From NCBI GenBank assembly GCA_039621445.1, contig CP154954.1:25804954-25868953 (forward strand): DNA of 64,000 nucleotides, in the 5' to 3' direction. The DNA comes from Euglena gracilis (taxonomy: Eukaryota). Shown piece by piece: positions 883 through 60,211 of the stretch. The notes under the pieces are model-generated. The model was given only the letters and a program-made list of their open reading frames with translations. It did not search any database and was not told the DNA's origin. Position numbers and translations under genes: made by a program. Positions within the stretch are counted from its first letter, which is position 1. Each line of letters opens with the position of its first letter.

Positions 883-7180
<6,298 letters not shown>

Positions 7181-7366
7181 GTGTGGATGTGTGTGCTCGC
7201 GTGTGCGTGCGTACGTTTGTGCATGCCTTTCTCTGTGTGTGTTGTGGAGTGTATCCTACGAATTTTGTTTGTGTGTTTTGTGTGTGTGTTAGTTTTGTGT
7301 GTGGATATGCCTCATGTGTTGCATGTGTGTGTGCATTTGTCTGTCCTCTTTTGTTGTAACGTGTGT

Positions 7367-7399
<33 letters not shown>

Positions 7400-7633
7400 C
7401 GTGTGCGTGTGTGTTTGTGTGTTCATTAGCAGATCCCCTGAGTGACCTCACACCCCAAGGGGGATGGGTGGGTTTGTTTTTGAGAAGGAGCGCGTGCCCT
7501 CCCCCCCAGGGGTGGGGGTGACCACAGATCAGGCCAATATGGCCGACGGCCGCGTTAGCCATGAAAACGGTACAGTGCGTGGTCCCCGGCAGGAGAGGGT
7601 TGTGGGTGGGTGAGTTTTCGAAAAAAAATGGTA

Positions 7634-8041
7634 CCCCCCCCCCTATGTCCAACGACCCCCCTATGCCCAATGACCACCCCCCCGGTCAGAGGACACCTTT
7701 TCGGAGGTTTGACCAAATTTTTGGTCCCGGCGCAAAGCGCCGGGACGAAAAATTTTGCCCAAAAATTGGCCAAAAATTTGGCCAAAATGCCATTTTTGAC
7801 ACTTTTTGGACAAAAATTTGCCAAAATTGCCCAAAATTTTCGGCGCAAAGCGCCGGAAGGGAAAATTTGGGCATTTTTGGGTGGGTAGGGACCCGGGTAC
7901 CCACCAACTTTCTTTTGACCCCATGTCCAACGACCCCCCCCCCCGGTCAGAGGACACCTTTTTGGTCACTACCCTATGTCCAACGACCACCCCCCCCGGT
8001 CAGAGGACAGAGGTTACCGGTCATTGGACATAGGGGGGGGG
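7634..8041. mobile_element. MITE with TA TSD (Tc1/mariner-type signature)
   Basis: Ends read TA|CCCCCCCCCCTATGTCCAA ... TTGGACATAGGGGGGGGG|TA. Internal CCCGGTCAGAGGACA repeats are present. Confidence 0.75.
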
Positions 8042-9632
8042 TAGTGGGTTTTGGTTTGGGAAAGAGTGCCTCCTCCCCGGGTGGCTAAGTGAGTGAATGT
8101 AAGGTCTGGACCATTTGCAAGGATTTTAGCAAAAGGAAGGCGAGACATTTTTGAAACGTTCTGGATGTTGAATACTCTCTGGCCCATCTTTGGACAAGGA
8201 GATTCTTCCCATCCCTGGCCCCCCGCAAGCCTCAAGCAGAATTTTATCAGCCTTAGGCGGCGCGAATTGCCCAAATTTTATGCCATTTTTTAGGCGGTCC
8301 AGGTGTGCGGGTTTCCGTGTACGCCACCCACCCGAAACTAAACTGATATTTCTGATAGTTAATGCAACCCAGAAATTGTACGCGGGTTTCCGCCTGTTTC
8401 CACTGTTTTGACACGTGACCGATTTTGGAAATTAATGGTGAAAAAGGGGTGGTTTTGTGAAATACCCCCCAGAAACCTGGCCGAAAATGTGAAAACGGAG
8501 AAGGGGTGGGAGAACACCTGGCCGTCGAAGCCCCGGCCGTGTCACGACGGAGCCGGACCCCACCTCCGGGAGGGGGGTGACATTGCGGAACCTGCGACGG
8601 AGAGGCACCCGCGTAAGCAACCCGCGCACTTTCTGAGGACTGGTGAGTGCCAACGACCAGTGACGGGAGGTGGGAAACGAACACCCCTGCTGAATGTATT
8701 CCATAATTTTTGAAAGATGGTCTGTTGGGCGGGAAACCGCACAGAACAGATGAACCGTGTGTGAAGGGGCTAACACTACGAGAGGGGGCTGAATGACTAT
8801 GGCTGGATAAAAGTGAACTTGTGCGGTTATCCGTGTAAAAACGTGTGGGAAACTCATGGAGACGTTTGACTTGGAACTGGACGTGACATCCACTGGGGCA
8901 CCTAACCCAAGGCAGCCCTCCTCCCATGCCCCCTCCCCCTCACCGCCCGCCTGCCAGAGGGAGACTGCGATAGCACACGAAAGCGCAACGACAGAAAGAA
9001 GGGTGGGAGGGGGAGGGTGTGTGTGTGCGGATCACCGTCCTGGTCCTGGAGGGGTCCTTTGTCCCGGGGGGAAGAGAGCGAGACGAAGTCTCTGTGGGCG
9101 GTCCAGAGGGGACAAAGGGAGAGAGCACACGGAGGGGACGAACGGACAGCCGAATGGGTGGTCCAGGTCCAGGGCACACGAGATGTGGTCTCAGAGAGGG
9201 GTATGTGTCAGAGAGGGATTTACACACTCCGTACACAATCGCAAAAGGTCTGGTTGGGCGCATTGAATGGGAGACCAGAATGTGTGAGCCCTGGACCTCA
9301 CACGGCGGTTGGGGCGTCCGGTGGGTCCCAGGTGGAAAAAACAGTTTGATGGAGTGGTCCAGGGGTTGGGTTCCCGTCGAAAGGTGAAAGGCGTTTGGGC
9401 AGTCCCCGGGGCAGTGGGTGTGCGGTGAGGGTGTGTGACACACAAAAAACAAAAGCAGCGGGCGGTCCCAGGTTCAAAAGCCTCAGGCGGTCCACACAGG
9501 AGGGGGCAGAGAGAGCTGCTCCCGTCGGCCGCCCACGGCCGTCCACGGCCGTGCACACGTGGGGATGGCGGCTGCCTGCCGCCCCGCCGCGCCCGGCCCG
9601 CCCGCCCGGCCCGCCCAGCCCGCGCTGCTGGC

Positions 9633-12600
9633 TCACACGTTGAGCAGCTCCTCCAGCGCGCCGGCCGGCGTGGGCTTCTTCTTCGGCTGACCCTCCCCCC
9701 TTGGACTTGATGAATTGGAGGAGGGAGGGAGGGGTGTACGCGTGCACCGAATGAGTCAGCAAGCTGTGTGCGGTTTCCCGTGCAATTTGCAAGCAGAACA
9801 TCACTGACGGCGAGAGGGTCCTAGATCCGTCCAGAGTTTGTAAGGGCACAGGCAGTGTGCACGCAAAACCTCCTGAACCCAAAAAAAGAGTATTGGAGAT
9901 TATGTGCGGGTTTCCGTGCAGCGCAGAAGAAGACGCACGTGTGCGGTTTCCCGCGTGCCAAGCTGTGGCTGCAAAACTTAGGGGCTGAAGGAGCACATTG
10001 ATAGGACACACGCTGAAGGGGGGACCGTGTTGGGGGCGGTCGCGGGACGATCTCCTCAATCTCGTCCTCCGGTTCACCGGCGGCGGACTCGGCGGGCGGC
10101 GGGGTGCGGGCCGTGCGCTTGCGGCCCGTCACCGGGGTCTCTGGCCCCGGCGGCTCCTGCGCCGCTGCTGGCGGTTCGGCCGCGACCTTCCGCCGCCCGG
10201 AGGGGGGGGAGGCCCCCTTGCGGCCCGCGTCCTCCGGTCTCCTCCTCCGTTCCTACGTCTTCTGCTTGGCCGGCATCACCGGGGCCTCAGGCTCCTTCGC
10301 GGCAGGGGCCCTCTCCTTCCCCTTCTCCTTCCCCTTGGCGGCCGGTGGGGCCTTCTCCTTCTCCTTCTCCTTCCCCTTGGCGGGGGTCTCCTTCTTGCCC
10401 CGCCCCTTGGCTGGCGGCGGGGGCGAGGGCTCCCGGCCCTTCTTCTCCGGCTCTTTCTTCTTTGGCCGGGGGGGCATGTCCTCCTCTTCCTTCTCCCCCT
10501 TCTCCTCCTCCTCCTCCAGCCCGCCCCGGCCGGAGACGTCCAGGGGCTCGTGGTGGGTGATGCGGTGGTGGACGTTGATGGCCACAGGGACCACCACCCA
10601 GGTGGGGCGGGCTGGAAAACGAAGAAACCAGTCACAGCAACAGCCAAGCACACCGCTCCACGGGAATCCGCACGCGTGCACTGTGCACGGGAAACCGCGT
10701 GCACGCTGTGCGTCACGTTCCGATGCTGTACTGACGGCTCATGCACGCAGAGTCGATACGAGCAAACATTCCCCCCCCCCCCCTTCGTCTGACCCGCACT
10801 GGGGTGGCGCTCTGATCCCACAGGATGGCCGGCTTCCCGTCGGCCACTTTGATCTCGCGCTGCAGCTGGTCCACCCGCAGCTGCATCGCCTCGTCCGCCT
10901 CCTCGAGGAGGTCGGGGTCCCCCCAGATGACGCCGATGGGGACCTGCAGCCGGGTGGCGAGGTCCGCCGGGAGGGCGGCGTGGCGGGTGACCGCCAGCAC
11001 CCAGTCGTGGGCCTCCACGTGCAGCCGCGCCAGCAGCCACCACGCCACCTCCACCGGCAGGGTGGGCGGCCCCTCCCCCGCAGAGCTGTGTCTCAGCTTC
11101 AGGCGGGAGGGATGAGGAGTGCGAGTCGAAAAGGGAATTGGCCAAAGGAATTCACCCTGTGGAACTAAACGTCGTTCTTTCACCAGGAGAAATGGAATAA
11201 TCACGAGAAGTGCACGGAAAAGCGTCTAACCTGGACCTGGAATCATTTTGATGAACAGAACTGTACCAATACCTGTGAACTGACCAATGGTGTCATTGTG
11301 ATGTTGCTTTTTTTGTTTGTTCAGTGTAGACAAAGCCCTGACCCTGTCCCACGAGGGTGATCTGCCGCGGCACCTGTGGGGGCAGATGAAGGTGTGCCAA
11401 CACCTCACGGCAGTGGAACATTGATTTTCTGAGTCACAGCATAGATCTTAAGAAACGTTCGTGTGCACTGACATTATCCCCTGTGTGCACGGGTGTGTAC
11501 CTGTCCTGTGCGAATACCCTTACATTCCACATATTTGGGCGGATTACCGTGCCCCCCCCAAAAAAAGAGAACAGTCTATTGGTTGCTTAAAATAAAAACC
11601 GAAACGAAGGGTGTGCACACCCGAAAGTCCGTCTTGCTGCTGAAGAGGGCGGTGACGGTGGTGACGTTGAAGAGGTAGGTGCGGTCCACGTTGGACTTCA
11701 CCGGCCGGTGCAGGGTGACGTCCACACGACGCATCTCGTCGGGGACGTCCATGCCCTTCTGCAGGGTCTGCTGCAGGGCCCCGATGGCGAACGCCCGCCC
11801 CGTGGCCACGAACGGCACCCCGCGGCTCCACAGTCTCAGGAGCTCAGGGTGGACATCGGCGTCGCTCAGCCCGTCCGGGACCTCCACCACCACCGCGTCG
11901 ACGTTCAGCTCCATGATCTCCCGCGGCATCCCCGCGGTGGGGTGGAGGGGGACCACGTGCGCCAGGCGGGACGGCTCGGGACTCTCCCCACGCTCCGCCG
12001 CCTCCGCCCTTCTTCGCCCCCGGGTGGACCGGCTGCCCGCCCGCGGAGAGCCAGCCTCAAACAGCTCCCCCTCCCCAGACGTGGGCTGACTGGGGGACCC
12101 CTCCGCCTCCTCCCGGCTGCTGCCGGCCGCCGCTGTGGCCGCCCCGCGCCGACCGCCACCACCGCTGAGGTCCAGGGTGCAGAATCGGCCCCCGTACCGC
12201 ACCGTGGGCTCAGCGAGCGGCTGGGCCAGCCGCGCCCGCAGGGGGGCGTAGCGCTCAGTCCCCCACAGGGGGGAGCGGAGGACCGCCTCCCGCGGTGGCC
12301 GGCCTCAGGACCCCCCCGACCCTCAGACATCACAGGGAGAATCCTGAGCCAGGACATACAAAAATGAAACAGCTGCACTCCATGACATTCTGATGTGACT
12401 TGTGATGTTTCACGCGGGTTCCCGTGTACAAAAAAAAATCATGTGCAACTAACCAAAGATACAGGGAAAAAGTGCACACACGCGTCCTGGATAGTCCTGC
12501 GCACGGGTGCTGGGCCGACCAGCGCCAGTTGGTACCGGTGAGCGGCACCTTGATGTCCGCGCTGTCCATGCTCTGCTCCAGGCTGGGCACCATGGCCAGG

Positions 12601-14620
12601 GTACCTGAGCACGAGAACGGTGACATCAGCAAAGAATCCCCTCACTACACACGCTTCCATGTACAAGCGTCTTTCCACGGAAACCCGCATGAGAATGACA
12701 AAATGGAGATCTGCACGGAAATCCGCCTGAGAACCACAACCTTCAGCATAAACCGTGTGGTCACACAGTGCGGAAGACAGCGCAGAGTAGACATACGGCG
12801 GGTCGGGTGAACGTGGTGAAGGTCCGGGTGCATCAGCAGCCACGTCCACGTGCGGCGGCGGATCAGCGTCCCCACCACCGCCTTGACGGCGGAGTGCCAT
12901 TCCTCCCCCGTCACATTGCACCCCAGCGCGCATGGTGTGGTGTGCGGTTTACCGCGTACTGTCTCTGTATCAACTCGAACAGTAAAACTGGTTGAACTGT
13001 CCCCCGTATGGTCACAGTTTTCTTGTGTGCGTGCGCCTGTGTCTGGCTGTCTGTGTGAAAGTGCGGGCAGAGTCCCAACGGAGACAGACAGTGAAATGGA
13101 CATCCGAACCAGCCGCACCGTCGTCGCCTTCGCCGCCTCGTCCAGCATCTCCCTCGTCAGGGCGACGTAGTCCTGCGGGTCGTACAGCTGCTCGATCGCC
13201 TTGAACGCGTACGGGGACAGCGCCGCCGCCACCCCCGTCGTGGGACCAGCGCCCGCACCGCCTCCACCACCGGCCGCCCGCTGTGCAGCAGCCACTCCGC
13301 CAGCGGCTGCATGGACTTCACCCAGTTGTCCTGCACAGATGAGGTCAGGGAGAGTTGGGGGGGGGGGGAGTGATGTGTACGTGATAGCTGGAATATCAAA
13401 GGACAGGGTGCGCGCACTCACTCTCCCTCTGACAAGCAAAAAAAAAAGAAAGGAAGCCATCCGTGTCAGCGGGAATCCGTGCATTGCATCAAACGGATAA
13501 CAGCGCACACGGAAATCCGTGCACACACCATCTTGCCGTGGGACGCCTCCGTGCACCCCGTCTTCACGTACACCCGCTTCAGCAGCTCCGTCCGGTTCAC
13601 CGTCAGGCGGGCGGCGGTCCCCGCCTCGCCGTCCGGCACCGCCCCCGGCCGCTCCCGCTCCACCTCCCGCTCCAGCCACTCCACCCGCTGGCTGAGGGAC
13701 ATCTCCCTCACCGTCCCGTCCCGGGCTTGCATGCTCCCCGCCACGCGCTGCCTCTCCTCGAGGCTGGCCGACCCCAGCACCGTGTGGCAGTTGAACCACT
13801 CGGTCCACTGCGGCGCCGGCCGCGCGTCGGCCACCGCCGCGTCCGCCACCTGGGTGGCCGCCAGGAAGCGGTGCTGCCCGCTCAGGATGACGAACTTCCC
13901 CGTCGCTGTGAAAACAGGGAGGACGACAGTGCCACTGAGTTTTGTTCCGGTGCACGGATTCCCGCCTGGATCACCACCCCAACTCCAAAAAAAAAAACAA
14001 GAACAAACGGTGTATGTTACATTATTCCGTCACGTGGGAAGCATCCGCCGCCATTTACAACATCCATGGATACAGACAGGCTGGCCAACTATGCTCGCAG
14101 AAACAAAACACACCCTGCTCCGGCCACACCACGAAGCTCAGGGCCCCCACCGGCGGGTTCTCCGTGAACGCCTTGACGAGGCTGTCCACGTGGGCCTTTT
14201 CGACCCGCCGCACCTGCCCTCGCGTGAGGGTCTCGTCCAGCACCAACACGTCAAAGCGCGGAGGCTGTCTGGCTCTCCAGGGTTTCAACTGGTCTGTCTG
14301 CTGCACGCGCACGCAGAACACAAATCTGAGCAGTTTGCACGGAAACCCGCACAGCTGTAGAAACCAAAGGGCGTCAATGACACTGAAACAAACTGGGTGA
14401 GTGTCATCCAACAAACGGAGTGACTTCTCCTGTACTTTCGAAAACATCCCAGGAATGAGGAACCGTCAAACACCCTCAGACGATTGTACGGCCAAAAAAA
14501 AAGTACAGAACCACACCAGCCAGCTCCAGACCCCCTCCGGACACGGGCCAGCGGGGTCGGGGTCTTCGACACCAGCTCCGTCGCCGAGCGAGTGGGCGCC
14601 GTGGGCTTCCGGGCTGCCAT
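9633..14620 (-). CDS. Accessory transposon gene of about 11 exons: N-terminal ParB/Srx-like domain, possible degenerate MTase-like region, charged low-complexity tail. At least one apparent frameshift (about 13240)
   Basis: GC3-rich exons are separated by GT-AG introns. GQVRRVEKAHVDSLVKAFTENP (about 14150-14225) is followed by GKFVILSGQHRFLAATQV (about 13850-13902), the GxHR signature of ParB N-terminal/sulfiredoxin folds. The last exon reads PKKKPTPAGALEELLNV* (TGA at 9633-35). Confidence 0.65.
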
Positions 14621-14857
14621 CAGAGGTCTAAAAAAACGAGGCAGCGTGAAAACAGCCGAAATGAAGGAAATTCAGGTCAGAAACAGTCCCCACACGAACA
14701 CTTTTGTGAAAATAAATAAGCACAAAATCTGGGACATTCAGTTCTATCAAAAAAATAATTGTCATTAAAGGAAACACAGCAGTGACCACCCCGCAGAGCA
14801 CCCCCCTTCTGGCTGGGTGGAGAATGCTTTTGCACGGAAACCCGCCCGCCACCCCCT

Positions 14858-17800
14858 TTACATTCTGAAACAAACCCTCACCCTCGCTCTGAAGGCCTCC
14901 ATCTGACTCCCTGATATACAGAAAGGTTCAGGAGCACGTAGAAAGACCGGGGTCCGGTAGGGACACACCGCCGCCGGGGAGAGACTGAGGTCCTCATCTG
15001 AGGAGGAGGACCCCGATGACGTCGGGCGGCTGCTCAGCAGCTCCCCCAGACTGCTGAGGCCGTCTGAGGCCGCCGGGGAGACGTATCCCTCGGACAGCGT
15101 GCCCGGGGGCTCGTACAGCGACTCCGCTGTACTGGGCGGCTCGTACAGGCTCTCCGCCTCGGGCAGCTCCAGCGCCGGCCATGCCGGTTGCACCGCAGGC
15201 GCCTGCACCACCGCCGCCTCGGCCGCGGAGGAACTGGGCTCCTCCGGGGTGAACCGCACCCGGCCCTCCACCGGGGACTCCTCAGCAGGCCTCATACCCG
15301 GCGGTGCAGGTGCTGCTGCAGGTGCTGCTGCACGGGTTTCCGCACGGGCCGCCGCCTCTGCGCGGGTTTCCGCCTGCCCGCTGGTCGCCGGTTCGACGTC
15401 CCCCGGAGGCGTAGGGCTGCGGCGCCGCCGCTGCCGCTGGTGGAGGAAGTTGTCCATCGCCCGCTGGCGACGGGCGAACTCCTGGGGGTCCACCGGCCTG
15501 ACGTTCTCCCGCATCCAGACCAGGATGTCGGGGGTCAGGGCCCGGCCGCTCACCAACGTCAGGAGGGAGGTCCGCATCAGGGCCTCCAGCGCCCGGACGT
15601 CCACGATCTCCGGCAGGATGGGCGGGGACCCCCACCGGGGGAACTCCACCTCAGAGGCGTCCACCCAGGCGATCCGCGTGGCGTCCACCCGGCGGGGGAA
15701 GGGGCGGCCCTCGGGGTGGTCCGCCAGCTGGCGCACCCGGTGGGTCATCTCGGCGACCAGTCCCAGCCGCAGGGAACCCCGGCTGGCGTGCGGCGCCCCC
15801 GACGGCGGCGGCAGGCCGAGGAACAGCTGCAGGGTGCCCCGGAAGTCCGTGACGTACGGCGACCGACGGCAGGCACCTGACAGGCGCGACAGCATCGCCT
15901 CGCCGGCCTCCTCAACGAAGACGCACCCGGGCAGGCGGGACATCCACGGCTGCCAGGTCAGCAGGGCCAGGGAGATGGTCCGCATGTACTCCGAGGGGAG
16001 GCCATGCGGACTCATGGCCCGCTCGAGGTGGGCCTGCAGGACCAGGCAGCGCTCCAGCACCTGCCGCGCCGTCTCCCCCTTCACCTCGTCGTCGGGGCGT
16101 CCGCGCCAGGTGCACTGCCGCACCTTGAAGCCGAGGTGGAGGAGGGCCGGCAGGAAGAAGGTCAGGAGGCGGTGCAGCCCCAGGAGCAGCTGCGGGCCGT
16201 ACGCGTCGGCCGCAGTGGGGGCGGAGACGTGCACGCGCTGGCTCTCCTCCCGGAGAAGAATCTCCAGGTGACGTCAGAGTGACAGATGAGCTTTGGAAGT
16301 GTCTTCACCCAAAGTTGGCCTGCGTGACCTATCACCAGGGTCCTTTACGCGGGTTTCCGCACAAAGCGGACAGACTGTGACGGACAGAAGGGAGAGATGT
16401 GACACCAAGTGACCCACGACATGACTGTGCGGATAACCGCACGAACATTGGTCCGATGTACCAGGTGCAGCCTGAAAGCAGCCAGCTCGGGCAGTGGTCA
16501 CCCTGGCTGGGGCAGCACGTCGGCCCGGGTCAACAGGAGGCTGGCGAACAGCTTCTCCATGTACAGCACCTTCCGGTGCGACCGCAGGGACGTCGTGAGC
16601 TGCCGGCTGCCCCCGGCGCCAACCGGCACCTCCAGGTGAGCCAGCACCGGGAAGAACGCCCGGTACACCACCGTCACCGTGTGCTTGTAGGCATGCCAGA
16701 TGCCGTACAGCAGGGGGACGTTGGCGAGGTGCTCCCCCATCCGGAAGCGCAGCGCCGGGGCCGAGTACAGGAGGCGGAGGATGCGGTAGTGGATGTTCTC
16801 ATCCACCAGGAGGGGCAGCTGACGGCCCGACCGCGCCTGCAGCTGCAGCACGGTCTCCAGGAGCTGGAGGAGGTCCCGGTTCGAGCTGACCGTCTGCTCG
16901 GTCAGGGAAAAGGGCCTCCACCGCAGCGACCGCATCGCGTCCCGCTGCATGTCCAGCGGGACGCGGACGTTGTCCACCGAGAGCTCCGCCCGGTGGAGGC
17001 CGCGCACCGCCTGGTGCAGCTTCTTCGCCGACTGCAGGCACAGGTCGGCCGCCCAGCGGAGGTGCTGCACCACCGTCCCGAACTCCGGGTGACCCGTGGA
17101 CACGGGGAACGTCACGGACCGCGTCAAAGTGCCCTGACGAGTTCGCAGGGGGTCAATCTGCAGCAGTCACCGCACAGAGGGCCTGCTCACTGAGCCAACC
17201 AGGCACATACATGTACGCATACACAACCCTGAAGTGTGCGGGTTTCCGTACAAACCAACACTGATTACACGGAAACCCGTACAAACGCGTCTGACAACCA
17301 CCTTTGTACTGAACCCTGTACACACCTTGGGGGATGTTCAGCTCTGTTCTCACCAGTGTCGTCGTTCACCTGTCCCTTGTCACCAACTGTGTCACCCCAA
17401 CTCGAGGTGTTCTTGAGCAGTTCATTCATTCAGTGCATTTTACAAGACAGAACATTCCCAGGCGGAAAACTGCGCAAGTCTTGTCATGCACGGATGGTCA
17501 TCAGGTCAGGCCCACTTCGCCAACAGCAGAAGACAGAGTAGGCACCCTGAACCCAGGGCGGTGACGTTGCGACTGTAGCTGGGCTGGGTGGGGTCTGTGC
17601 CCCACCGCAGCCAGCAGAAGTTGTCCAGCCACAGCACGCACTGGTGGCCGTCCAACGCCCGCAGCACTGCGTCCCGGGCCCTTAGCGCCGCTCCGCACCA
17701 GCTCCTCCGTGGGGCCCACCAGACCGGCGGGCCGCAGCAGTCGACGGGTAGCGCGGGGCAGGTCCTGCAGCGTCTGCTGCGCCGGGGCGGGGGCCAGGGC

Positions 17801-18126
17801 GGCCGCCGGCGTGACCAGCTCGCCAAAGGGCACAGCCAGCCGTCGCAGCGTCCTCCACAGCGCCAGCAGCCCGTCGGTGAAGCGGGCCATCCAATCGGCC
17901 GCTCGGACGGGGGCCGGGTGTACTCCCGCCGCACCTCCCGCAGGCTGCGACGGGACCGGCGGTTGGCCCTGACGGCCAGGCCTGTCTCCACCAGGTTGAG
18001 GGCTCCCAGGTGGCCTCTTCGGAGGGCGTCGTCCAGGATCGCCCAACCATCCGCCGGGGGGGCGCCGGCAAGGTACCCCCGCAGCTGGTCCAGCTGCAAC
18101 ACCAGCGTCTCAGACGAGGCGGCCAT
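14858..18126 (-). pseudogene. Putative DDE transposase (Transib/RAG1-like or DUF6589-like RNase H fold), 3 exons, frameshifted
   Basis: ATG at 18126 (MAASSETL). Motifs in order: CVLWLDNF (D about 17624), WRPFSLTEQ, LPLLVDENI (D about 16802), LYGIWHAYK, and LPGCVFVEEAGEAMLSRL (about 15900; recalled Transib motif LPIGxLSEEAxEAxNK). The coding frame switches within exon 1, and stops lie near the exon 2/3 borders. Confidence 0.6.
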
Positions 18127-21100
18127 TTTTTTTTTTTGCACAGTCTGAGACAACGGAGAAGAGAGTGTGCGGATTACCGCGCAGCAGAGGGTGCGTGAGT
18201 GAGTCAGGGACACAATGTAGACACATCTGCTGTACATGCTGAACATTGTTTTCAGTGAATGGACAAAGATCACTCACGTATGTACAGTTTCAACCGTGTT
18301 GTCACCCGCGTGTGGGCAGTGAAGCAGTGTCGTATCGTCGTGCCGACAAGGGCTCAGTCCTTTACACGGGAATCCGCACAACACTGCGCTGTGTTTGATT
18401 CAAATCTGTCATCGTAGCACACTGTGTTGTACCACACACCGCAGCCATTGTAGACCGCTTCTACGCGGGTTTCCGCACAACTGGTGGGAACATCGCAATG
18501 ACCTGTTCTTCCTTCGCTATTACCTCCCTCACCGTTGAAATGTTTGCGCTTGATTCTGTGCTGTTGTGCGGGTTCCCGTGTAAAGCCATGGAAGGCTGCT
18601 GTTCAGGGTTTCTCAAATTTGAAGCCGGCGGGGGCAACAGTACCCGGATCGGTCCGTACGGCGCAATTCAGAGCGCGATTCCAGGTAAGACGGCCCTCCA
18701 AAACCGAAGGACCTGGGACCTTGTCGCGATTCAGGGTGTTTAGTGGTACAAGCGGATGTTGAAATTCTCGCGATTTGTACCCCCTCGCGAACGGGATGTG
18801 CCACTGCGACGTAACCCCTGGGAAAACACCGTGGTCTGGGGGCCGAAGTCGTTGTTTGTGCGGTTTCCCGCACAAACCGCAGCTCCACGTCGTAGAAGGT
18901 GGCCTGTTTTGGGTGATGTCAAGGGAGCAGCAGTTCACCCTACGGATGTGTCTCGCGAACGACACAGGAACCGTAAACCAGTCGTGTACCACCAACCACC
19001 CTCAGTCGCGAAAGAGTCCCAGGTAGTCGTGTCCGGGGGAGGTCTACAGCACGCAATCGTGCGGCCCAGTTGGGCGTGTGCACTGAGTCCCCTCAGTGGC
19101 CTAGACCAACCCCCCCGGGGGTATACCGAACTGCTGTCAGCTTCCGCTTCGTTCAGCCTCCCTCCTCCGCACCAACCACAGAAGAGAAGAAAAGAGACCC
19201 TACACACACAAAAGAGACACACGTCGTGTATACATACACGCAGCCCGAGCGGATACCCGTACACGGACTCGTCCGTAAGGAAAAAGTAGGCAAGTGACCG
19301 CACCGGCCGGGAACCAGTGGCGTTGCCCACTGGGGTGGGCGGTCCCAGGGAGCTCGGCCACAAGAGGCCGTTACAGCCACTTGCCCAACATCTCTCTCCA
19401 GAGATCGCACATGGACTGTATAACATTCGCGAAACCACTGTTGGTGGTCAAGCCGGCGGTTACACCAAATGAAGGCCTCACGATCCAGATCCAGAAGCGT
19501 AGGAGGGAGAAGGGGCGGACATCTGTGCAGTGCACTGGGCCTCACGCCTTACGCGCTGGTCCGTTCTTGTACGCGGAAACCCGCACACATCGTCGCCGTT
19601 GGCGTGTGACCACACCACACAGACTCTGTCACCCTCGCCAGACCTCCACGCACACAACTGACCGGTGGCCTACGCATTCCGATCGCGAGGAAAACCGGTC
19701 CCCTACGCAGTGGTGTACCACCAAACGTCCAAAACGTGAAACACAAACACCCAGGTTCCATTTTCCTACCCAGTCGGTCGGGGGAGTCCGGGACGGGCGT
19801 CGTCGCCCCAGCTGCGTTGGTCCGCAAACGCCGCAACCGCACCCCCGTTGGGGAGGTCTGGGCAACCTGCCCCGGCGGTGCGGAGAGGTCAAAGGACCAC
19901 CCGGGCTCCTCATTATTCTTTTTATACACTTGGAATGTGTTACACGGATTCCCGCACAAGACATCCCGTTGGCTTTTCCATACTTCATGGGCTGCTCTAC
20001 ATCTGTTTGGAAACCCTCACACCCCTCTACGGACGACCACACTGCGTCGAGTTTCGCAACCAGTCAGCACCGCAGTCGCGGAAACACCGGTGTTCCCACC
20101 GTTTACGTGCCGTTTCGTTCTTGTTCAGGCCGGGGAGTTACACAGGCAGGCTCGCCGGGGAGAGGACCGCCCCCTCTTACAGGGGGATGGGGCAGCCAAC
20201 TGTTGGCCCACCACCACACCCGGCGGACACACCACCGTCACCGGCCGCGGCTGGGCCACCGTCCCGGTGACGGTTAGGGCACACGGGATGTGTCGGGGTG
20301 TGGTGCGACAGACAGGACGCTGCCCCCCGGTCCCCCTGGCCTCCCCACCATTTTTCGTTTGCACTTCAAGTAAACGCATCTGTCCTCTCGCGTAGTCTGG
20401 CCCACACACCCACCTCAACGTTCTGCGGTGTTGTGCGGATTCCCGCCCAACACCAAATGCCTTCGTTCTGTCCTTCACAGGTTACACGGGTTACCGCCTG
20501 GACGTCATAAATACAACTACGCTCTCTTTACGCGGTAATCCGCCTAAACCACACATCACAGTTTTCTTTCACATCACACCAAACACACAACACCCCCCTG
20601 TATCACACATCGTTGTGTTTGTTGTGTGCGGTAATCCGCACACACTCGTGTTGTTCACCTCACCTCACACACTGTGTGACAACAGACGTACCACCAATAT
20701 ACACCCACATTGTACACGTGTTACAATACCGTGCTTTTCTGGTACCTGTAACAGGGGTCTCATCACCACTGTTTTTGCGTACCTCTGCATCGTGTACTGT
20801 ACGATGCGCGGAATACCGCACAAAACCACTTTCATAAAATCTTGGCCCAAAGCTGCCACGTAACCCTTGTAACTCAAAATTTTGTTCCTTTTTCGCTGTT
20901 TTTAAAACAGCCAAAAAACACCAAAAAACGCAAAAATGGCGTGGGCAATTCGCGCCGCCTAAGTCAAATCTCAACTTGAGACCCCCCATTCGTGAAATTC
21001 ATGCATTTTGGCATATTTTGTCCTCATATTCCGTTATTGTTCTTCCTGCAAGTGCCGGGGAAGACTGGTGCATCGAGCGAGAACACATGAGATTTTGAGA

Positions 21101-21449
21101 TGCATGTTTGTGGAACACTTGGCATTGCCCCCCCACTCATCACTCGCCGGATACCGCCAACCCGATCTTATAAAAAATGCACAACACAGTTACCACCAAC
21201 CAATTACCGAACTTTGAGCATCACTCTGTGGGATTCAACACACACATCGCGCTGCATTCAATGAGGATGGTATGTTTAAATAAAGATTCTGACAGAGTTT
21301 CAGATACATACACACACATTACAAACCATTTTCAATTATCACACAAATTTGTGTGTGCCTGGGTTGATTCGTACACGCACGCGCGCACCCAGCTGCCCCC
21401 GCCAATGCCCCCACCTCCTTCCCACTCCCCCCACCCAATCCCTCCGCAG

Positions 21450-30743
<9,294 letters not shown>

Positions 30744-43815: not shown

Positions 43816-46248
43816 TTGAAAACCTTTCAAGGTTTCTGCAACACCCTATTACGACTTCAGGAATCGGTGAATCGGAATGCTGGATCCACGCAAGGTGAGA
43901 TTACCAGGTTTGATGACCAAACTTACGAGCTGTCGGATAAACCACGACTGGAAAAGTTTCCCGTGGGTACCACAACCGCGTTTCCTGATAACCCTGCACC
44001 GATTGCACCAGACCAGCCAAGGTAACACCACCTCTGCAGATTCTCTCAAACGCTGTAAAATCATTAACGGGACAACTCCAAATATTGGATGAGTCTCAGG
44101 GAAACTTGTACAAGATGTCACCGGAATTTCCGAAAGGATTCAGCATTTGGAAGATTTCTCCCGTTACCGCAGGCGTATTCACGCTTTGGAGCAAGAGACT
44201 GACCGTATTTGCGGCCACCTCCAGCCTGTTGAGCATTTGAAACAAAGTGTGCATGACTTGTCTGTGAGTGTGGACAATTTGTCCAACCAACAGCGGGTTT
44301 CACACCGCATTCCGGCAGTATACTTTGCCAAATATGTGCCAAATGTATCAGAGTGGCGTTACCAAAACCCGACTCCAGGTGAACATGCACAACCACCACC
44401 AGCGTCAGTGTGTCGCAATCCGCGATTACGCGAATTGTGCAACCGTTGTCCTTGCCCACACCACAATCCCAGTTTTCGGGTAACTTTACCATGACGGGAA
44501 CAAAATTCTCGGAAAACACGGCGATTCCGACGAGTCTCCAGCAAGAAATACAACATTTCATGCTTGTGCGTGGAATGAGCCAAACCCATCCGCTGGGACT
44601 GGGTCACATGTCGCCTGCGCGACATACCCCCACACCGGAGAGTCCCCGTACTACTGGTGACCAACAGGGTTTGCGACCGGATCTCAGGTACCATGAATCA
44701 CCTTCACCAGAAATTTCGCCACTCCGACAAGAATCCGGGAGAGATACGTTCGGTGTTCGAGCGTATCCGGGACCAAACCACTGAATACAACCGAGGGTCA
44801 ACGGGTTCCTCAGAAAGACATCAAGGGCACCATCGCAATCGCGAACAAGGTGAAACCCCAATGGGACGGAGATCCACCCATATGGAGACAGTTTTTCCGG
44901 GACTGGGAGTATTACTGGGCATTGAAAGGACCAACCCAGGACACAAACCCGGAGGTGATCAAGATGAAATTCATCGATTGCCTCCTAAGCGATGAGAAGG
45001 AGCGCGCACGACAACTTGTCATTCGCAACCGCAGTTCCTTTGACGACCTGGAGGAGCAATACGCTTCCAACAGTTCAAGTTTGGTCGCTAAGATTCCCCT
45101 AGAGACCAAGTGGCGGCAATGCGCCGCACCCGATCGCAAATGGAAGTCAATTGACCTCTGGTATGCCAAATTGTTAGGACTTACCGCTGAAGTGGACGAA
45201 CTGAGTGAAAAGCAAATGCGCGAACAGTTTAACGCTGTTCTAATGCATTTCACGCCCAGCCTCACAAAGGATATCCACCGTGAGGAGTTGGCGGGTCTTG
45301 CAATGAGCCTTGACCAACGCTGGAACTAAGTATCCAAAAAGTTGAAGGTATCACAGCTTCTTTTTCAGATTCAAATCGCGTTTAACGCACATCCGACCGC
45401 TGGATTACCGGCTGGTTTGGTGAAAGAATTGCAGAAATCACCCGTTTCACCCACTTCACCAACCACTGGAGCGAAAACGCGATATCCGCGTTCTTCTGAC
45501 CAAGCCACGGAAAAAGTTTGCTTTTTGTGCAATAAATCGGGACTTACGTCTCGGGAATGCCCTAATCCGGATGCGCGAAAGCGTGTTCAGTGTCTGCGGG
45601 GCTCGGCCTTGTCACGGGGTTCGGGTTCCTCCGCATTTTCAAGCCAAATGGGCAATTCACGGTCATTGGGTCCCAGTTCTGGCGGTGTAGCCCCCTGTTC
45701 TCGTTCCGCGATGAGCGCAGCCACGGTACCCCTCGATGTTGGTACCCCGGTGCCCCAGCCAAGAAGCGGGATTCCTATTGCGAGACATCGCGATCGCGTT
45801 CGCGAAGCAGATCACCCTCTTCGCGATCCTCATCAGGAAAATCCCATACACCCGTGATGGTCGACGGGATACCCGCTCACCACGACGGTTTGAAGGGAAA
45901 TGGGGAAACTGATCCCCCCGTTGCACAGAATCGCAACACAAATCCCTGCGTTCGCTTTGATGATCGAGTGATCACCACTCATCCTAGTGTCCAAGATCTC
46001 GTTCTCCCCGCCCTGGCCAACATCATCGCGGTATGAATCGCGGTGACAAGTGTCACTCCTCCAACCGCCATAAAGTTGGTTTCAAGACATCTTGTTTGGA
46101 GGATGACACCCCGGCTTGGGGCAGGGAGGAGGATGTAACCAGGGATACGGATTTCGACGAAGCCCTGATGGCGGTGTGCACGTTGAAATCCGTCTATACC
46201 TCCAAAAAGCCCATAGCTGGCAACTCGGCCGTTTCGGACCGGGAGTAG
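43816..46248 (+). pseudogene. Decayed retrotransposon gag-like region
   Basis: Contains KPQWDGDPPIWRQFFRDWEYYW (from 44850) and a degenerate zinc knuckle CFLCNKSGLTSREC (about 45520-45560). There are several stops and frameshifts. Confidence 0.7.
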
Positions 46249-46249
46249 G

Positions 46250-47000
46250 GGAACCCGAGGTCCAAGGCACGGAACTCTGGGCTGATGAACAGACGGAGGT
46301 AGGACTGGAACCCTCAACAAAAAGCACATACTTTTTGAACGCGGATAATACCGTCCGCACATCGCGATAATGCACGTCCAGGATATCCTTGCCCGATTTC
46401 GCAGATGGCGGTTGGTTTCCCGCCAGTACACAATCGATGTACACCAGAGCAAACGGTAAATCGCGCAAAACCCACTGGATCATGCGTTGAAACATGGCTG
46501 GGCCATTCTGAACACCCATGGGGAGTTAAGTCCATTGGTACACACCCTTGGATGTCACGAATGCAGTTTTCGGTTGTGAATCAGGATGCAAATGCATCTG
46601 ATGAAAACCGTCTTCCAGAACAAAGATCGACTACAATCCGTTATCCTATTTTCTGGTTATCAACTCTTCGATCAGAGGAAACGGGAAGGGTTCATCCTTA
46701 AATTATGAGTTCAGGTACCGGTAATCCAGAACCTGCCTCCACTTCTTCTGACCAGACTGTTGAGGGGTTTGGGCACCACAAAAGCCTGTGATGTCACTCG
46801 CTCTTGGAAGGGTCGCGATTTTCGTGGTGTACTGGATAACCCAGTTTACGCCTGCGAACATCGACCCCGCGATTCGCGGTCCCTTCGGTGTTTTCAAAAT
46901 TGAGCTCAAGGATGGTGCTAAGCCCATGCACCGGAAACTGTTCAGTTTTTCAGGTGAACGCAAACAAGCTCTCAACCAGATGCTTGAGAAGCTCATATGT
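46250..47000 (-). pseudogene. Ty3/Gypsy-like reverse transcriptase fragments, rearranged
   Basis: Minus strand: KKWRQVLDYRYLNS (46705-46750) and PMGVQNGPAMFQRMIQWVLRDLPFALVYIDC (degenerate YxDD). The RT N-terminal piece FKIELKDGAKPMHRK is on the plus strand (about 46830-47000). Confidence 0.8.
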
Positions 47001-47118
47001 GGCCTTGGGGTGTTGACCAGCACTCTCAATGACTGCAGAAATTTGTGTTGAGGGTTTGGTTGTATCCCCATTGGTACCAAGGGATCTTGGCACACGCAAA
47101 TCGGACATTCGGAATGTG

Positions 47119-47500
47119 TCAAAGAAACAAACACAAAAAAATTTTTTCTTTAATGGGTGGTAATAATATGTCACAAAAATCAGCAGGTAAATCCCACCAA
47201 CGAAAACACACATAGGACAAATTTGGAAGCCAATCCGTATTCGGATTGACGGGTATGAGGAGAGCTCCTCGCGCTTCATCGCGGAAATTTTTCCCCAATA
47301 CAACCAGGATGAGTTTTGGGGGAGGGTGCATCCAAAGCACCCTAACGCCCCAAAATTTAATAAATGCGTTGGTGTGTCGGGGCAATATAGCGAGAAGCGC
47401 ACATGCGCTTTTGATGAAAACGCATCAATTTCCAACGACAAATCGAAAAAATCTAATCCGAGTTTTTGGAGAACCATTCCTCAAAAAAAAACGGTATTAA
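47119..47500 (-). pseudogene. Dam-like N6-adenine methyltransferase domain of retroelement (DIRS-MT) type, frameshifted
   Basis: EIDAFSSK..F..Y / NAFIKFW....LWMHPPPKLILVVLGK..RDEARGALLIP.....WLPNL follows the recalled pattern DxFAS...DAF...W...xPP..LI..VL.K....P.W...W.P.L. Confidence 0.65.
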
Positions 47501-48250
47501 CCAAAATGTAATTTGTTCCATACGTACATTACGTATGTGTCGACCTGGTTCGCGGGCTGAAGAGCGATAACACAATTCAGGGATCCGCAAACATAGGTCA
47601 AGGTTGTGTCATCCACACTGCAAAGGGGAAATCCCAAGGGTTGATGGGTTGTCTGAGTGCCTTCCCGGTCCACATTGTGCCAGATGGAGGTGGGGGAGGT
47701 GTGTGACATGGATTTCGCGCTCCCAAACAGCAATGCAATACCTCGTTGCTGTAGCACTTGATGTAACGTCGCGCATTGCGAGGCGCAATCAAGTGTGTGG
47801 GTGGGCGAAAACATGACTAGTGTTGGTGTTTGGAATAAAGATTAGAATTAATAAATTCTTCGACACACTAGAAGGATTAATTAATTTTAATATTAAGAAA
47901 AATTAATTATTCGACACATTAGAAGGAAGTGTCGGAGTAGTGGTCCGGGTCGCGCATGTTGGTCTGGTGGGGGTGTGTGTAAAAGTTGGGACGCGCTTCT
48001 GTAGCTGCTGGGGGGTGTAAAGATGTATCTGAAAGCGACACATCTGGTGGAAAACTGTTTACGTTGGTTGTCACCACCCGCCGTTGGACGGCCACGGGGC
48101 AGCTCATACTACTTGCCGTGGCTCGTCCTCAGGCAGGGAACTGCGCACATGGTCCGGCCAACCAGTGTCTCGTCCATTTGCGCAATTGCGCGCGCCGAAC
48201 GATCCCCGCGGTATGCCCTCTGCCCGTAGGGATCCTTCAGGACTCACACG

Positions 48251-48322
48251 GCGGGACCTGGGTCTCGAACCCACGACCTCCCGCGTGTGAGCCCAGCACC
48301 TTACCGAATAAGCTACTCGAGC
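48251..48322 (-). other. tRNA-derived segment within the LTR (not a functional tRNA)
   Basis: The minus strand reads GCTCGAG TAGCTTATTCGGTAAGG TGCTGGG CTCACAC GCGGGAGGTC GTGGGTTCGAGACCCAG. It shows an A box/D-loop, a CAC anticodon-like loop and a B box/T-arm. The acceptor and anticodon stems pair poorly. Confidence 0.7.
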
Positions 48323-48940
48323 GATACTCGGCTTGGTACTACGCGCCGGCTACCAACCTCCGTAGGATCTCCCGTCTGCCGCACACACTCCCCTCCCAAG
48401 AGCCTTACTACACTAGCCCACTGCGTCACTATGGCCGTTGCCCCTGCAGCTCGGGTTATGCCTCACACGGCCCTAGTTGGCTGAGTGCTTCTCACGAGTA
48501 CTGCGTCACCAGGCTGCCGACCCCTGCAGCTCGGGTTTGCTATTGCCGGCAGTTTACGTGTTGTCGACTTCAACGGGCTCTGCCGCCTTGGAGCGTCCCC
48601 CTTTGCATCGGCTTGAGACTTTGGAACGGTGTAGGAGTTTCAGTCGCCCTAGACTCGGCGCGTCCGCCTCCGCCTTCCGGGCGCCGTGGGGTCAGGCTCT
48701 GATTTACCGGTTCGTGTTGCATTAGACGGGTTCCCCTGCTACGATGTTTACGTTGGTTGTCACCACCCGCCGTTGGACGGCCACGGGGCAGCTCATATTA
48801 CTTGCCGTGGCTCGTCCTCAGGCGGGGAACTGCGCACATGGTCCGGCCAACCAGTGTCTCGTCCATTTGCGCAATTGCGCGCGCCGAACGATCCCCGCGG
48901 TATGCCCTCTGCCTGTACGGGATCGTTCAGGACTCACACG

Positions 48941-49012
48941 GCAGGACCTGGGTCTCGAACCCACGACCTCCCGCGTGTGAGCCCAGCACCTTACCGAATA
49001 AGCTACTCGAGC
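48941..49012 (-). other. tRNA-derived segment within the second LTR
   Basis: Copy of 48251-48322. Confidence 0.7.
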
Positions 49013-50460
49013 GATACTCGGCTTGGTACTACGCGCCGGCTACCAACCTCCGTAGGATCTCCCGTCTGCCGCGCACAAAAACCTGGTATTGGTGCTGCTG
49101 GGCGACTACGCGACACCGTACCTACTTCAGGCCTTCGGGATTTCGACTTGAAACCCAGTGGAACGAGGGGGACACCGCTGCTCGCTTACCCTGCCTCATG
49201 GGGTACGGTAGTTGGTGTAACAATGGGCATGGGGGTAACTTTCTCGGTCCACCGGGTGTAGAAAACGTTTGTAGGTATAGTTGGTAACGGGGAAAATCTT
49301 TTTGGAAAACGGTATAGAAACGGTATGGTCGTCGCGGTTGACGCCACAGGTGATGAGAGTTTGTGGGGCAACGAACAGAATGGTGATGTGCGCAACCCAT
49401 GGGAGTGCCAATCCACTACCAGCCGGTGCTGACATAAAAGGGGTATCCCAGAATTACTTCAGAACCATGGATTCCGGATTTATATCCCCATGTATCTGGA
49501 AAAATTTGCGGGTGGGGGGGCGTGTGTGGTGCTTTGGGAGGAGGGATAGGAAAAAATGTTTGAGCAGAGTGGGATAAAACGGAGGAGGAAAGAAATGTGA
49601 AAATGAATTAAATTGAAAAGGTCCATATTTTACGCAATGAGATTATGTGAATAAACAACAACAAAAATGGCAATGTCACACCTGTCCTGCCAAAACGGAC
49701 ACCTCACAAAACGTAAAACCTGCAGAAAATTCATCGGGAAATCAAAATGTTTTTCGAATGTGAACAGGACTGAGCGAGAAGTTTTTTTTTAACCATTGAA
49801 ACACTGTGTTTGTCTTTTTACTGCCAAGCCTTGATCTTGTGGGGCAATAAAGACAGGAAATGAACATCTTTGACAACAAAGGACGCGTTTTGGAGGATGC
49901 AGATTCCATGATTTACAAAGGAATGTAATAAAACAGGCACTGTGCTGTTTTTAAATTGCAATGCGAACCCAGAAAAGGGTCATAGTCGGTTTAGTTGTGG
50001 ATGCTGATGGCAATGGCAGTACAATATGAGTGACTACAATTTCTTGGGCTCTGGGTTTGGGTTTGTATCTGGGGTCCTTCAAATTTCGGTGCTGCTTCCT
50101 TGTGTATTCCATTGCACGTACTGGGACGGTGGTGGATAAAGGGCAGCGGAGACATTCATTTCTGCGCTTCATTGCGCTCCCTGGGTGGGGATGGAGGGAC
50201 AAAGACCCAAGCGCACCCTCACCCGCTCATTTGCGACCCACTCCCGCCGCACCGTTTGCCCGACGCCATTCGCTGACTGCAGCCAATGGCCGTCCGCCAA
50301 CCCCTCCCCAGTGAGGTCTGCCGGCGTCCGTTGCAACACAACCGTCAGGGCGGGGTTTGATTGTCGGGCTTTCCATCCAGTACAGGCCACGCGCCACCCG
50401 AACTGTTCCTTGGGCCGCACTACTGGCCGCGGGATGTGTCTCGAAGAAAATCCCCCCGGC

Positions 50461-51395: not shown

Positions 51396-52407
51396 CCTGG
51401 CACCCCCGGAGCAGATTTTAAAAAAGGCACGCGCGGCACTCGAGGTTGTCCTTGCCAGTGTCAAACCCCATCCCCGACCCCGGCGGCGTTTTCTTTTTGT
51501 CCCTTGCTGCGCCTGTGCCACACAGACGATTGTCCGTGGACCGGGGCATCACGGCACACGAGCAGGCACTCGTCGCACTTCTTCGCGGTAATTCCTCCGT
51601 CCCCTCTTGGGACGCCTTCGGCAATCACGCAGTCTCCTCATTCAGGCCTCAGATCTGTAAAAAATCTCTCCCGACATAAAATCTTTGAAAGTGAGCAGCT
51701 GATCGGGTTGGTGAGACCCTGAAAAAGCACCCTAAGAAAGAATGAAGTCGAAGAAATTTGGGATGGGCGATGGGCACTGTCCAAAAGCATTCTGCCGGAC
51801 CTGATTACACGTGGTGGCATTGCAACCCTTGGCGTGGCGAGACAGGGTTCGAAATAAGGAAAGTGGACAGGATTCAGTTTGGGCCCACCCCTCCCCCCAA
51901 ACCGGAGGGGGGGGTCTACACCAACCTGGGGAGAAGGACCCCCCAAAAGGTCAAATTTTTCCTTCTTTTACCCCAATTTTATTTACTTTTTGGCATTTTT
52001 GAAAAATGTTTTTTGGCAAAAATGCAATTTAATGCATTTTTTCCAAAGAAATGCCCGAAAATGGCATTTTCTGGCCGAATTGAATTGAATTGGGAGGCAA
52101 AAAAATTAGCCAGTCCAAAATCGGTCAGCCAAACCGCCAATGCCCCCCCTGGACAGGGGGTCAACCCACCCTCTGTCCTGCGCTTATATTGAACCCTGGA
52201 TGCAGGCCAATGTACCTGACCCCCACCCACCCCCACGCCTGTCTTGACACCGCCATTCCGGTGGATGGCTCTGGTGCTCGTCGCGTGGTCCCAATCGGTC
52301 TTGTGCTGCCACCATCTGGGGTCACATTTTATGGGCAGGCTTGATTGATTTCCGAAATGGTCTCGGTGACCACAACATCAGATTTCATTCACATTGCAGA
52401 ACCGGTT

Positions 52408-52723
<316 letters not shown>

Positions 52724-57390: not shown

Positions 57391-57730
57391 ATGTATGTAT
57401 ATATACATGTATATGTATATATGTACATATATACATATACATGTATATATACACGTACATATATGTATGTGTATCTGTATGTGTGTAATATATACGTATA
57501 TGACACACATATGTGTATACACACGTATGTATATGTATATGCACGTGTGTGTATATGTATGTATGTATGTATGTATGCATGTATGTATGTATGTATGTAT
57601 GTATGTATGTATGTATGTATGTATGTATGTATGTATGTATGTATGTATGTATGTATGTATGTATGTATGTATGTATGTATGTATGTATGTATATGTATAC
57701 ATATGATAATATATGTATGCATATGTATGT
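57391..57730. repeat. (TATG)n/(TA)n compound microsatellite
   Basis: Directly visible. Confidence 0.95.
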
Positions 57731-60056: not shown

Positions 60057-60211
60057 ATATATAAATATAATATATGTTATATACTAATAGACGTGTATAT
60101 GTGCATATATATATATATATATATATCTGTATGTATAATAGATATAATTATAATATACAAAATAAACGAAACCGCTGAATTCTCCGTCACCGTGGAGCCA
60201 GCCCTCAAGAG

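Follow-up and report, generated by a model that had tools for sequence, protein, structure and literature searches.

We analysed a stretch of 64,000 nt of Euglena gracilis DNA (contig CP154954.1), hereafter the window, and all coordinates given below are positions in it. Between 8 and 21 kb the window carries a 12.7-kb element that is bounded by inverted repeats, contains two genes on the minus strand (gene 1 and gene 2) and is studded over its whole length with copies of a short palindrome (Table 1). The element is a terminal-inverted-repeat (class II) DNA transposon, present here as a damaged copy, and the product of gene 1 is probably its transposase.

Ends, borders and abundance of the element

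The two arms of the terminal repeat are complementary at 22/22 nt (100%) and are separated by 12,668 nt. When the window was searched with the 22-mer, allowing up to three mismatches, only the two arm positions were found, and two matches were obtained in none of 100 dinucleotide-preserving shuffles. The 22-bp inverted ends are real and not a product of chance, and the perfect repeat around 12.7 kb described in a first-pass annotation of the sequence was confirmed. Past 22 bp the similarity between the ends continues imperfectly, with a 7-base gap, and reaches about 40 bp. The termini read CTTAGG..CCTAAG, and the predicted pattern of the family ends is CTTAGGCGG..CCGCCTAAG. The interior of the element has a G+C content of 0.58–0.66, as compared with roughly 0.45–0.58 in the flanks.

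The borders of the insertion were read from contigs carrying paralogous flanks. Three records start exactly at 20964, and one contig stops matching exactly at 8251 and continues with 124 unlike letters; the insertion borders are therefore the outer bases of the 22-bp repeat. The right junction of the window itself is spanned by 306-nt contigs of two public sequencing runs, X1 and X4, which cover 20938–21243 with zero differences. No direct repeat adjoins the element: its left flank ends in ..ATCAGC and its right flank begins with TCAAAT... No paralogous empty site was present within the window.

The stretch, or part of it, was contained in 20 of the 24 public runs listed, from 19 studies. Contigs of four public runs were aligned to 7300–21900 and their depth was summed per bin. 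In run X4 the interior bins (8761–20935) reached summed depths of 9,365–93,736, against 179.5 in the single-copy flank bin (21423–21900), and in run X1 the corresponding values were 11,631–84,237 and 201.5. The ratio of interior to unique flank in X4 was 52–522x; as depth does not equal copy number, abundance is stated only as tens to hundreds of times that of the flank. Matching contigs of other copies fell into identity classes from 90% through at least 99%. The element family is very abundant and has many other copies, in agreement with the first-pass proposal of a DNA-transposon family with further members.

The left flank (7300–8273) is a repeat of its own that is far more abundant, with summed depths of 0.85–1.9 million in X4 and X1, and contains internal inverted repeats (7635–7657 with 8019–8041, for instance) as well as long runs of G or of C. 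The transposon seems to have been inserted in or beside this repeat. Contig joints within the element (such as 9785>14333, 15376>20525 and 8296>18565) were considered as deletion derivatives broken at palindromes and rejected; they are probably alignment artefacts, because their shorter sides comprise only 20–36 letters, about one palindrome.

Gene 1 encodes a member of a large conserved protein family

Gene 1 was delimited by tblastn of the homologue P0001, a protein of 770 aa, which aligned to three blocks of the minus strand (Table 1). The motifs WLDN, WRPF, LVDEN, YGIWHAY and LPG..VEEAGEA, previously listed in that order, lie as described in minus-strand frames of these three blocks. Exon 2 aligned to the profile of the family in hhalign with a probability of 100 and an E value of 3.7e-54. 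Intron 2 (16262–16518), as read from the sequence, has GT..AG borders in phase 0 and contains two copies of the palindrome, and two further copies stand in frame in the variable tail encoded by exon 3. For intron 1, no in-phase GT..AG pair that retains the conserved NVTAL block was found by eye. A 729-nt contig over 17425–18152 is unspliced; its source run was guessed to be RNA and may be DNA.

The copy in the window is damaged, as the first-pass annotation had noted in calling it frameshifted. The middle part of exon 1 matches homologues only in a second frame, and other copies of the element carry one additional base at 17893 in about half of the depth (X4, X1 and X9), one at 17692 in nearly all of the depth and one at 17687 in all of it. 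Relative to these, exon 1 of the window copy has lost three single bases, and the losses jointly restore the frame; they reflect either decay or an assembly error where G/C runs are short.

A phmmer search with exon 2 against 1.84 billion representatives returned 507 matches at E ≤ 0.001, 278 at E ≤ 1e-10 and 44 at E ≤ 1e-30, and a profile search of a 5.8-billion collection returned 46 proteins, none of them with a Pfam domain. Family members are about 700–840 aa long. The ten full-length members that were looked up (693–842 aa, on contigs of 2.3–6.6 kb) came from ENA, JGI and Logan assemblies, and all were described just as 'hypothetical protein'. No relatives were found in viral contigs or in prokaryote genome contigs, and a description of the gene 1 family was not found in literature on DUF6589/PF20231, new superfamilies or Lanisha. 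Within the element, the gene 1 product is the only conserved long protein, 10 further frames having given 0 families.

To describe conservation, residues were numbered after P0001 and counted over 46 aligned rows. D164 is kept in 45/45 rows, R255, P257, D259, R262, D309, W344 and H345 each in 46/46, and E387 in 45/46, and a block of glutamates comprises E516 (33/38), E517 (36/38) and E520 (35/37). D164 and D259 are 95 residues apart, D259 and D309 are 50 apart, and about 257 residues separate D259 from E516. The layout consists of a hydrophobic strand ending in Asp, two more Asp residues, a Trp-His pair within a long helical stretch and, after it, a helix-like block rich in Glu. The D..D..H..EE..E order pointed out in the first-pass annotation is real. 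Because this layout fits what is expected of an RNase H-like DDE/D core with an insertion domain, we infer an active site of that type in the gene 1 product.

In the otherwise variable C-terminal tail (window ~15050–15170), a short acidic motif, SLYEPP .. GYVSP .. D.L.S.GEL, at which a host factor may dock, is kept in the distant members P0001, P0007 and P0043.

A palindrome is dispersed over the whole element

The reference palindrome is an imperfect one that recurs in both orientations and makes up six of the repeat families detected (D1–D4, D6 and D9). Counting every site with two 3-nt half-sites and an A/T-rich 4-nt spacer, we found 40 in the element, where 1.3 were expected and at most 5 occurred in 200 resamplings, versus 2 in the other 51.3 kb of the window. 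The sites are spread across all 12.7 kb with a median spacing of 229 bp. The left non-coding end accounts for 8 of them and the right end with the leader for 12; a single site is found between the genes, 14 occupy gaps between exons and 5 fall in exons. Exons, which make up 41% of the element, are depleted of palindromes (5/40, binomial P 8e-5). Of nine inter-exon gaps of at least 178 nt, eight have one palindrome or more, and the ninth has a copy with a G+C-richer spacer (12414). Single-strand folding of eight palindrome copies gave z-scores of −0.6 to −5.5, and Rfam gave no match.

Recurrent palindromes also accompany relatives of the gene 1 protein. Distant relatives, at 27–30% identity, are encoded on metagenome contigs by one uninterrupted open reading frame (ORF), and three lineages of them, on four contigs, have recurrent palindromes of their own. 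L003, L004 and L005 carry 3, 4 and 5 copies, respectively, of a lineage-specific palindrome, in each case a number reached by 0/200 shuffles. In L001, a G/T-only stem occurs 4 times and another palindrome 3 times. The palindromes within the ORFs of the relatives lie in variable loops, at P0001 positions ~418 and ~707; the former is a linker, at which the window gene is interrupted by intron 2, and the latter is the tail, in which the window gene carries its in-frame copies. We read the palindromes as a family trait, predicted to be distributed, co-evolving binding sites of a dimeric DNA-binding domain encoded by the element, the alternative being a selfish mini-palindrome that spreads within it.

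Gene 2 contains a possible ParB-like stretch

Gene 2 was delimited by exon-like blocks with a high third-position G+C content, the evidence for this second gene being compositional, and of the two spliced minus-strand genes previously proposed it is gene 1 that the homologue alignment supports. An in-frame stop at 10253–10255 parts two open blocks rich in third-position G+C (10256–10600 and 10010–10252) and is either the true end of gene 2 or a further defect of this copy.

One exon encodes the stretch GKFVILSGQHRFLAA, which, together with the preceding exon, we take to resemble the N-terminal ParB/Srx motif. In PHROG (38,880 families), the sole match was phrog_723, 'ParB-like partition protein' (E 0.33, 11.7 bits, residues 3–44), which is weak and not significant alone, yet falls on the ParB-like spot. 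Single-exon queries of gene 2 against Pfam, NCBIfam, PADLOC, PDB and plasmids (tblastn) gave no matches; the candidate domain would be split by an intron. No methyltransferase motif was seen by eye. Gene 2 may encode a ParB-like DNA-binding accessory protein; the ParB-like gene of the first-pass annotation is slightly favoured by the PHROG match, with the other libraries blank. The accompanying claim that such a combination had not been described was overstated, since ParB-domain accessory genes, fused to a DNA methyltransferase, are already reported for algal DNA transposons in PMC12477816.

Surroundings in the window

The first-pass annotation had placed the element between host exons and antisense to a host gene, which was not confirmed. 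What we recovered on the plus strand was only a weak, split NOV_C signal at about 27.3 and 28.5 kb, in the frames 26934–27467 (profile positions 1–41) and 28483–29268 (profile positions 42–76), each half below the Pfam cut-off; the two frames probably belong to a host gene in which a C-terminal domain of the NO VEIN type is split. Ten plus-strand frames, eight upstream of the element and two at 21–25 kb, had no family match.

At ~24140–24760, 28230–30380, 54100–54700 and 60080–61530, strings rich in Gly/Pro/Trp and resembling one another (GGGG..PPPP..WWGG) are read in many frames, pointing to a further family of dispersed, G+C-rich repeats. Remains of a retroelement lie at ~44700–47500, with a weak minus-strand RVT_1 match at 46085–46525 (E 0.0029, short of the cut-off), and a plus-strand frame at 45330–45854 contains a zinc-knuckle-like CxxC...H...C stretch. 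On the plus strand at 47983–49284, a near-identical string of 60–70 residues (..WVSNPRPPACEPSTLPNKLLERYSAWYYAPATNLRRISRLP..) appears in two adjacent frames, so that the segment contains a duplicated repeat, either tandem or nested. Numerous long microsatellites of CA/TG and related types, seen as THTH../CVCV.. frames, occur at ~2450–2600, 3830–4000, 23440–23680, 27170–27300, 52380–52780 and 57400–57800.

Table 1. Positions of the transposon, its genes and its palindromes in the 64,000-nt window
Feature	Position	Strand	Description
Whole element	8252..20963	-	12,712 bp; both genes on the minus strand; bounded by a perfect 22-bp inverted repeat
Left terminal inverted repeat	8252..8273	+	CTTAGGCGGCGCGAATTGCCCA; imperfect continuation to ~8292
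Right terminal inverted repeat	20942..20963	-	Exact reverse complement of the left repeat
Gene 1 exon 1	17554..18126	-	ATG at 18126; first conserved Asp in the VLWLDNF block; 3' border approximate
Gene 1 exon 2	16519..17157	-	Invariant RVPLD..R, LLVDENIHYR and YGIWHAYK blocks; third-position G+C 0.95
Gene 1 exon 3	14858..16261	-	Conserved LPGCVFVEEAGEAMLSR block, variable tail, SLYEPP; stop 14858-14860; third-position G+C 0.89
P0001 tblastn block 1	18129-17554	-	38% identity, 195 aa
P0001 tblastn block 2	17166-16516	-	57% identity, 217 aa
P0001 tblastn block 3	16204-15050	-	40% identity, 386 aa
Gene 2	10253..14620	-	Exon-like blocks by third-position G+C 0.83-0.95 and GT..AG borders
Gene 2 exon-like blocks, upstream part	~14620-14525, 14300-14114, 13906-13531, 13331-13105	-	Frame change inside 13331-13105
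Gene 2 exon-like blocks, downstream part	~12632-12483, 12304-11640, 11114-10788, 10600-10256	-	
Gene 2 exon with ParB-like stretch	13531..13906	-	GKFVILSGQHRFLAA
Reference palindrome	9903..9920	.	18-bp imperfect palindrome TGTGCGGGTTTCCGTGCA
Palindrome starts 1-20	8308, 8383, 8730, 8824, 9028, 9771, 9907, 9944, 10070, 10661, 10688, 11540, 12678, 12716, 12945, 13470, 13510, 13593, 13955, 14340		
Palindrome starts 21-40	14835, 15333, 15363, 15840, 16350, 16430, 17239, 17270, 18170, 18367, 18466, 18861, 19250, 19574, 19945, 20436, 20487, 20533, 20629, 20809		

Discussion

The best explanation of the locus, to which we assign a probability of about 0.6, is that the element is one defective member of an abundant group of cut-and-paste (class II) transposons, from a eukaryote with GT-AG introns, with an unclassified transposase and a palindrome array, the gene 1 product being the transposase of a large and so far unnamed family. 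Gene 1 would encode an enzyme of ~780 aa, which, with its predicted DDE/D site, would cut at the 22-bp ends and paste the element elsewhere. The palindromes would be bound by the dimeric DNA-binding part of a protein that the element encodes, and through such sites the protein would be able to recognise the long DNA of its own element, coat it or fold it. Of the two candidate products, the transposase is more likely to do the binding, because contigs of relatives that show only the transposase gene have palindromes of their own.

Several observations weigh against this reading. At the insertion site, no target-site duplication is visible in this single copy: the best 5-bp comparison of the flanks (TCAGC versus TCAAA) agrees at 3/5 positions, there is no match at 4 bp (CAGC versus TCAA) or at 8 bp, and a TA duplication (CTTAAG target) can be read, in one copy, only if the repeat is taken as 18 bp (GGCGGCG..). 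No second copy with both ends was seen among the public contigs, the other copies appearing as depth and short contigs, and no RNA run is listed among those containing the stretch, the splicing and expression of the genes being predicted. At the protein level, the Pfam cut-off was reached by 0/10 full-length members, Pfam at E ≤ 10 matched no recurring family among the 46 aligned members, NCBIfam had no match to P0001, and the 46-member profile (hmmsearch) matched 0 of 177,635 distinct PDB sequences at E ≤ 10; the predicted active site is drawn from the motif layout. The same blank Pfam and PDB results agree with the first-pass view that the transposase has no named family. For gene 2, the PHROG match is not significant by itself, and no homologues were found with two exons as query in the 'longer' length class, a negative that is weak evidence because the search uses shared words. 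Among the relatives, the L001 palindromes fail a stricter shuffle test, a recurrent palindrome is absent from L002, and L004 and L005 are one lineage, so that the independent lineages are few.

Judged by published signature motifs, the gene 1 enzyme is neither a typical member of the Transib/RAG1/EnSpm clade nor one of the hAT/MuDR/P group. For the hAT/MuDR/P/Kolobok/Dada group, PMC10045372 gives a C/DxxH motif between the second Asp and the Glu. This signature is absent at the conserved histidines of the family, H313 (29/46 rows) and H345 (46/46 rows), which are preceded three residues earlier by E310 and G342, and the Pfam hAT, MULE and P models did not match family members. The superfamily candidates are a DUF6589-like lineage, to which only a language model leads, Sola, Novosib and a new superfamily.

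The language-model lead comes from the ESM Atlas, in which 29 of the 30 nearest clusters belong to DUF6589 (PF20231), an uncharacterised family mostly of Basidiomycota, with a top score of 0.94 and 200/256 shared features. The likeness is one of language-model features: the PF20231 model found 0/46 members at E ≤ 10, and the recognition value of the lead, 1799, lies below the 2300 mark of the tool, two results that count among those opposing the reading. As to the function of DUF6589, the literature searched held just a passing mention, beside Tet-like oxygenases in rust fungi. That the transposase represents a new superfamily-level lineage, perhaps equal to DUF6589, is a tentative proposal to which we give somewhat less than an even chance.

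We regard it as rather unlikely that the transposase belongs to a known superfamily without a public Pfam model, most plausibly Sola and alternatively Novosib, in which case only the family would be new. Bao et al. in 2009 are said to have described Sola transposases with a DDD catalytic triad, which the three invariant aspartates would fit, and against this a conserved Glu block is present beside them. Sola elements generate a 4-bp target-site duplication, which is not seen in the one copy compared here. According to Muszewska 2017 (PMC5751038), the nuclease domains of Sola, Zator, Kolobok, Novosib, Academ and Dada are without a Pfam match, and a blank Pfam result is therefore expected if the enzyme belongs to Sola, Novosib or another of these superfamilies. 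Further in favour of Sola, PMC12477816, which cites Iyer et al. 2011 and Petroll et al. 2025, describes Sola1-1_Ec32 of Ectocarpus, an element of 21.5 kb with a ParB-like plus methyltransferase gene. Like this element and the other algal ParB transposons covered in that text, ours exceeds 10 kb and has a gene with a ParB-like stretch beside the transposase; unlike Sola1-1_Ec32, its gene 2 showed no methyltransferase domain by eye and shares its strand with the transposase, the gene in Ectocarpus being on the opposite one, and its likeness to ParB is one weak PHROG match.

The first-pass annotation called the transposase Transib/RAG1-like, and the tests run here did not bear this out; we consider it improbable that the enzyme is a distant offshoot of the Transib/RAG1 lineage or, more broadly, of the EnSpm-Mirage-Chapaev-Transib clade, including ESTA. 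Target-site duplications in Transib/RAG1 and the CMCT clade are 2–5 bp long, with 5 bp in Transib; the 5-bp flanks of our element agree at 3/5 positions. RAG1 and Transib chains are present in PDB, and the 46-member profile, run against all PDB chains at E ≤ 10, had no similarity to them at the sequence level. The element ends in CTTAGG (or GGCGG, if the repeat is shortened to 18 bp) and not in the CA..TG termini of Transib/RAG1 and the CMCT clade. The order D..D..[W-H]..EE..E is real, with spacings of 95 and ~257 residues, and an H(3-4)H motif is present in 32/46 rows. As defined by Kojima 2025 (PMC12730594), the EnSpm-Mirage-Chapaev-Transib-RAG1 clade has a motif pair that includes C(2)C, and the CMCT clade as set out there comprises EnSpm/CACTA, Mirage, Chapaev, Transib, Plavaka, Lanisha and RAG1. 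Our element is like them in its terminal inverted repeats, its D, D, E layout and its conserved His between the second Asp and the Glu, and unlike them in that CxxC between the second Asp and the Glu block was found in just 2/46 rows, with no conserved Cys pair. The rust-fungal setting of ESTA also differs: the many GT-AG introns, the G+C-rich coding sequence and the aquatic metagenomes in which relatives occur suggest that the host is not fungal. A dinoflagellate spliced-leader motif was absent from the window and from the loci of the relatives, a result of little weight.

ESTA of rust fungi, according to PMC12730594, is TA-duplicating, has transposases that are RAG1-like in HHpred and carries TET genes. 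A TA duplication is readable here with the 18-bp repeat, and the mention of DUF6589 beside Tet-like oxygenases in rust fungi provides an indirect link. Against the TA reading, by which the breaks would be expected four bases deeper in the element, the contigs with paralogous flanks break off at 8251 and 20964.

It is very improbable that the 770-aa family represents a gene which the element captured or carries as a passenger, with mobilisation in trans by an enzyme encoded elsewhere: giant algal transposons often have passenger genes and broken transposases, as stated in PMC12477816, and the catalysis of the gene 1 product is predicted from sequence alone, but this product is the sole conserved long protein in the element, its invariant acidic residues suit a nuclease, its family has diverged into hundreds of clusters, and on other contigs palindromes specific to the lineage lie both around its relatives and within them.

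Returning to an element-encoded transposase with a palindrome array, two known systems offer comparisons for the array. En/Spm, Ac and Hermes have subterminal arrays of a short transposase-binding motif, and the array described here is like these in having many short motif copies, in both orientations, inside the element near its ends. It differs in that its copies are palindromes that extend over the whole element and into nearly every intron, and that in relatives stand in frame in the transposase gene. Rickettsia palindromic elements, which are genome-wide selfish insertions in bacteria, are likewise short palindromes in frame in variable loops of protein-coding genes; unlike them, each palindrome type here is confined to one transposon lineage, with 2 sites in the 51 kb outside the element.

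A bolder reading, which we regard as doubtful, is that the element belongs to an undescribed superfamily-level lineage, widespread in aquatic microbial eukaryotes, in which each lineage keeps dozens of copies of its own palindrome over the full length of the element (at both ends, in almost all introns and, in frame, in variable loops of the transposase gene) as a parS-like recognition system read by the transposase or by a ParB-like partner. If this is true, the parS-like array would make it possible to recognise a long element as one unit, to condense it or to protect it. The published idea of ParB-type proteins binding their own transposon, as it appears in PMC12477816, fits the palindrome array found here, and our results bear on the idea of algal transposons carrying ParB-type proteins that act on their own DNA.

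The existence of hundreds of diverged clusters without a Pfam, NCBIfam or PDB profile is a gap in transposon annotation, and copies of this family in protist and algal genomes are likely to be annotated as host genes or as 'unknown repeats'. If the lineage is a new superfamily, it would join some two dozen that are already known, and a function for DUF6589 may follow from it. The palindrome arrays, which vary among relatives and are tolerated in frame, would constitute a concrete protein–DNA recognition system, and they may explain how elements of more than 12 kb are handled.

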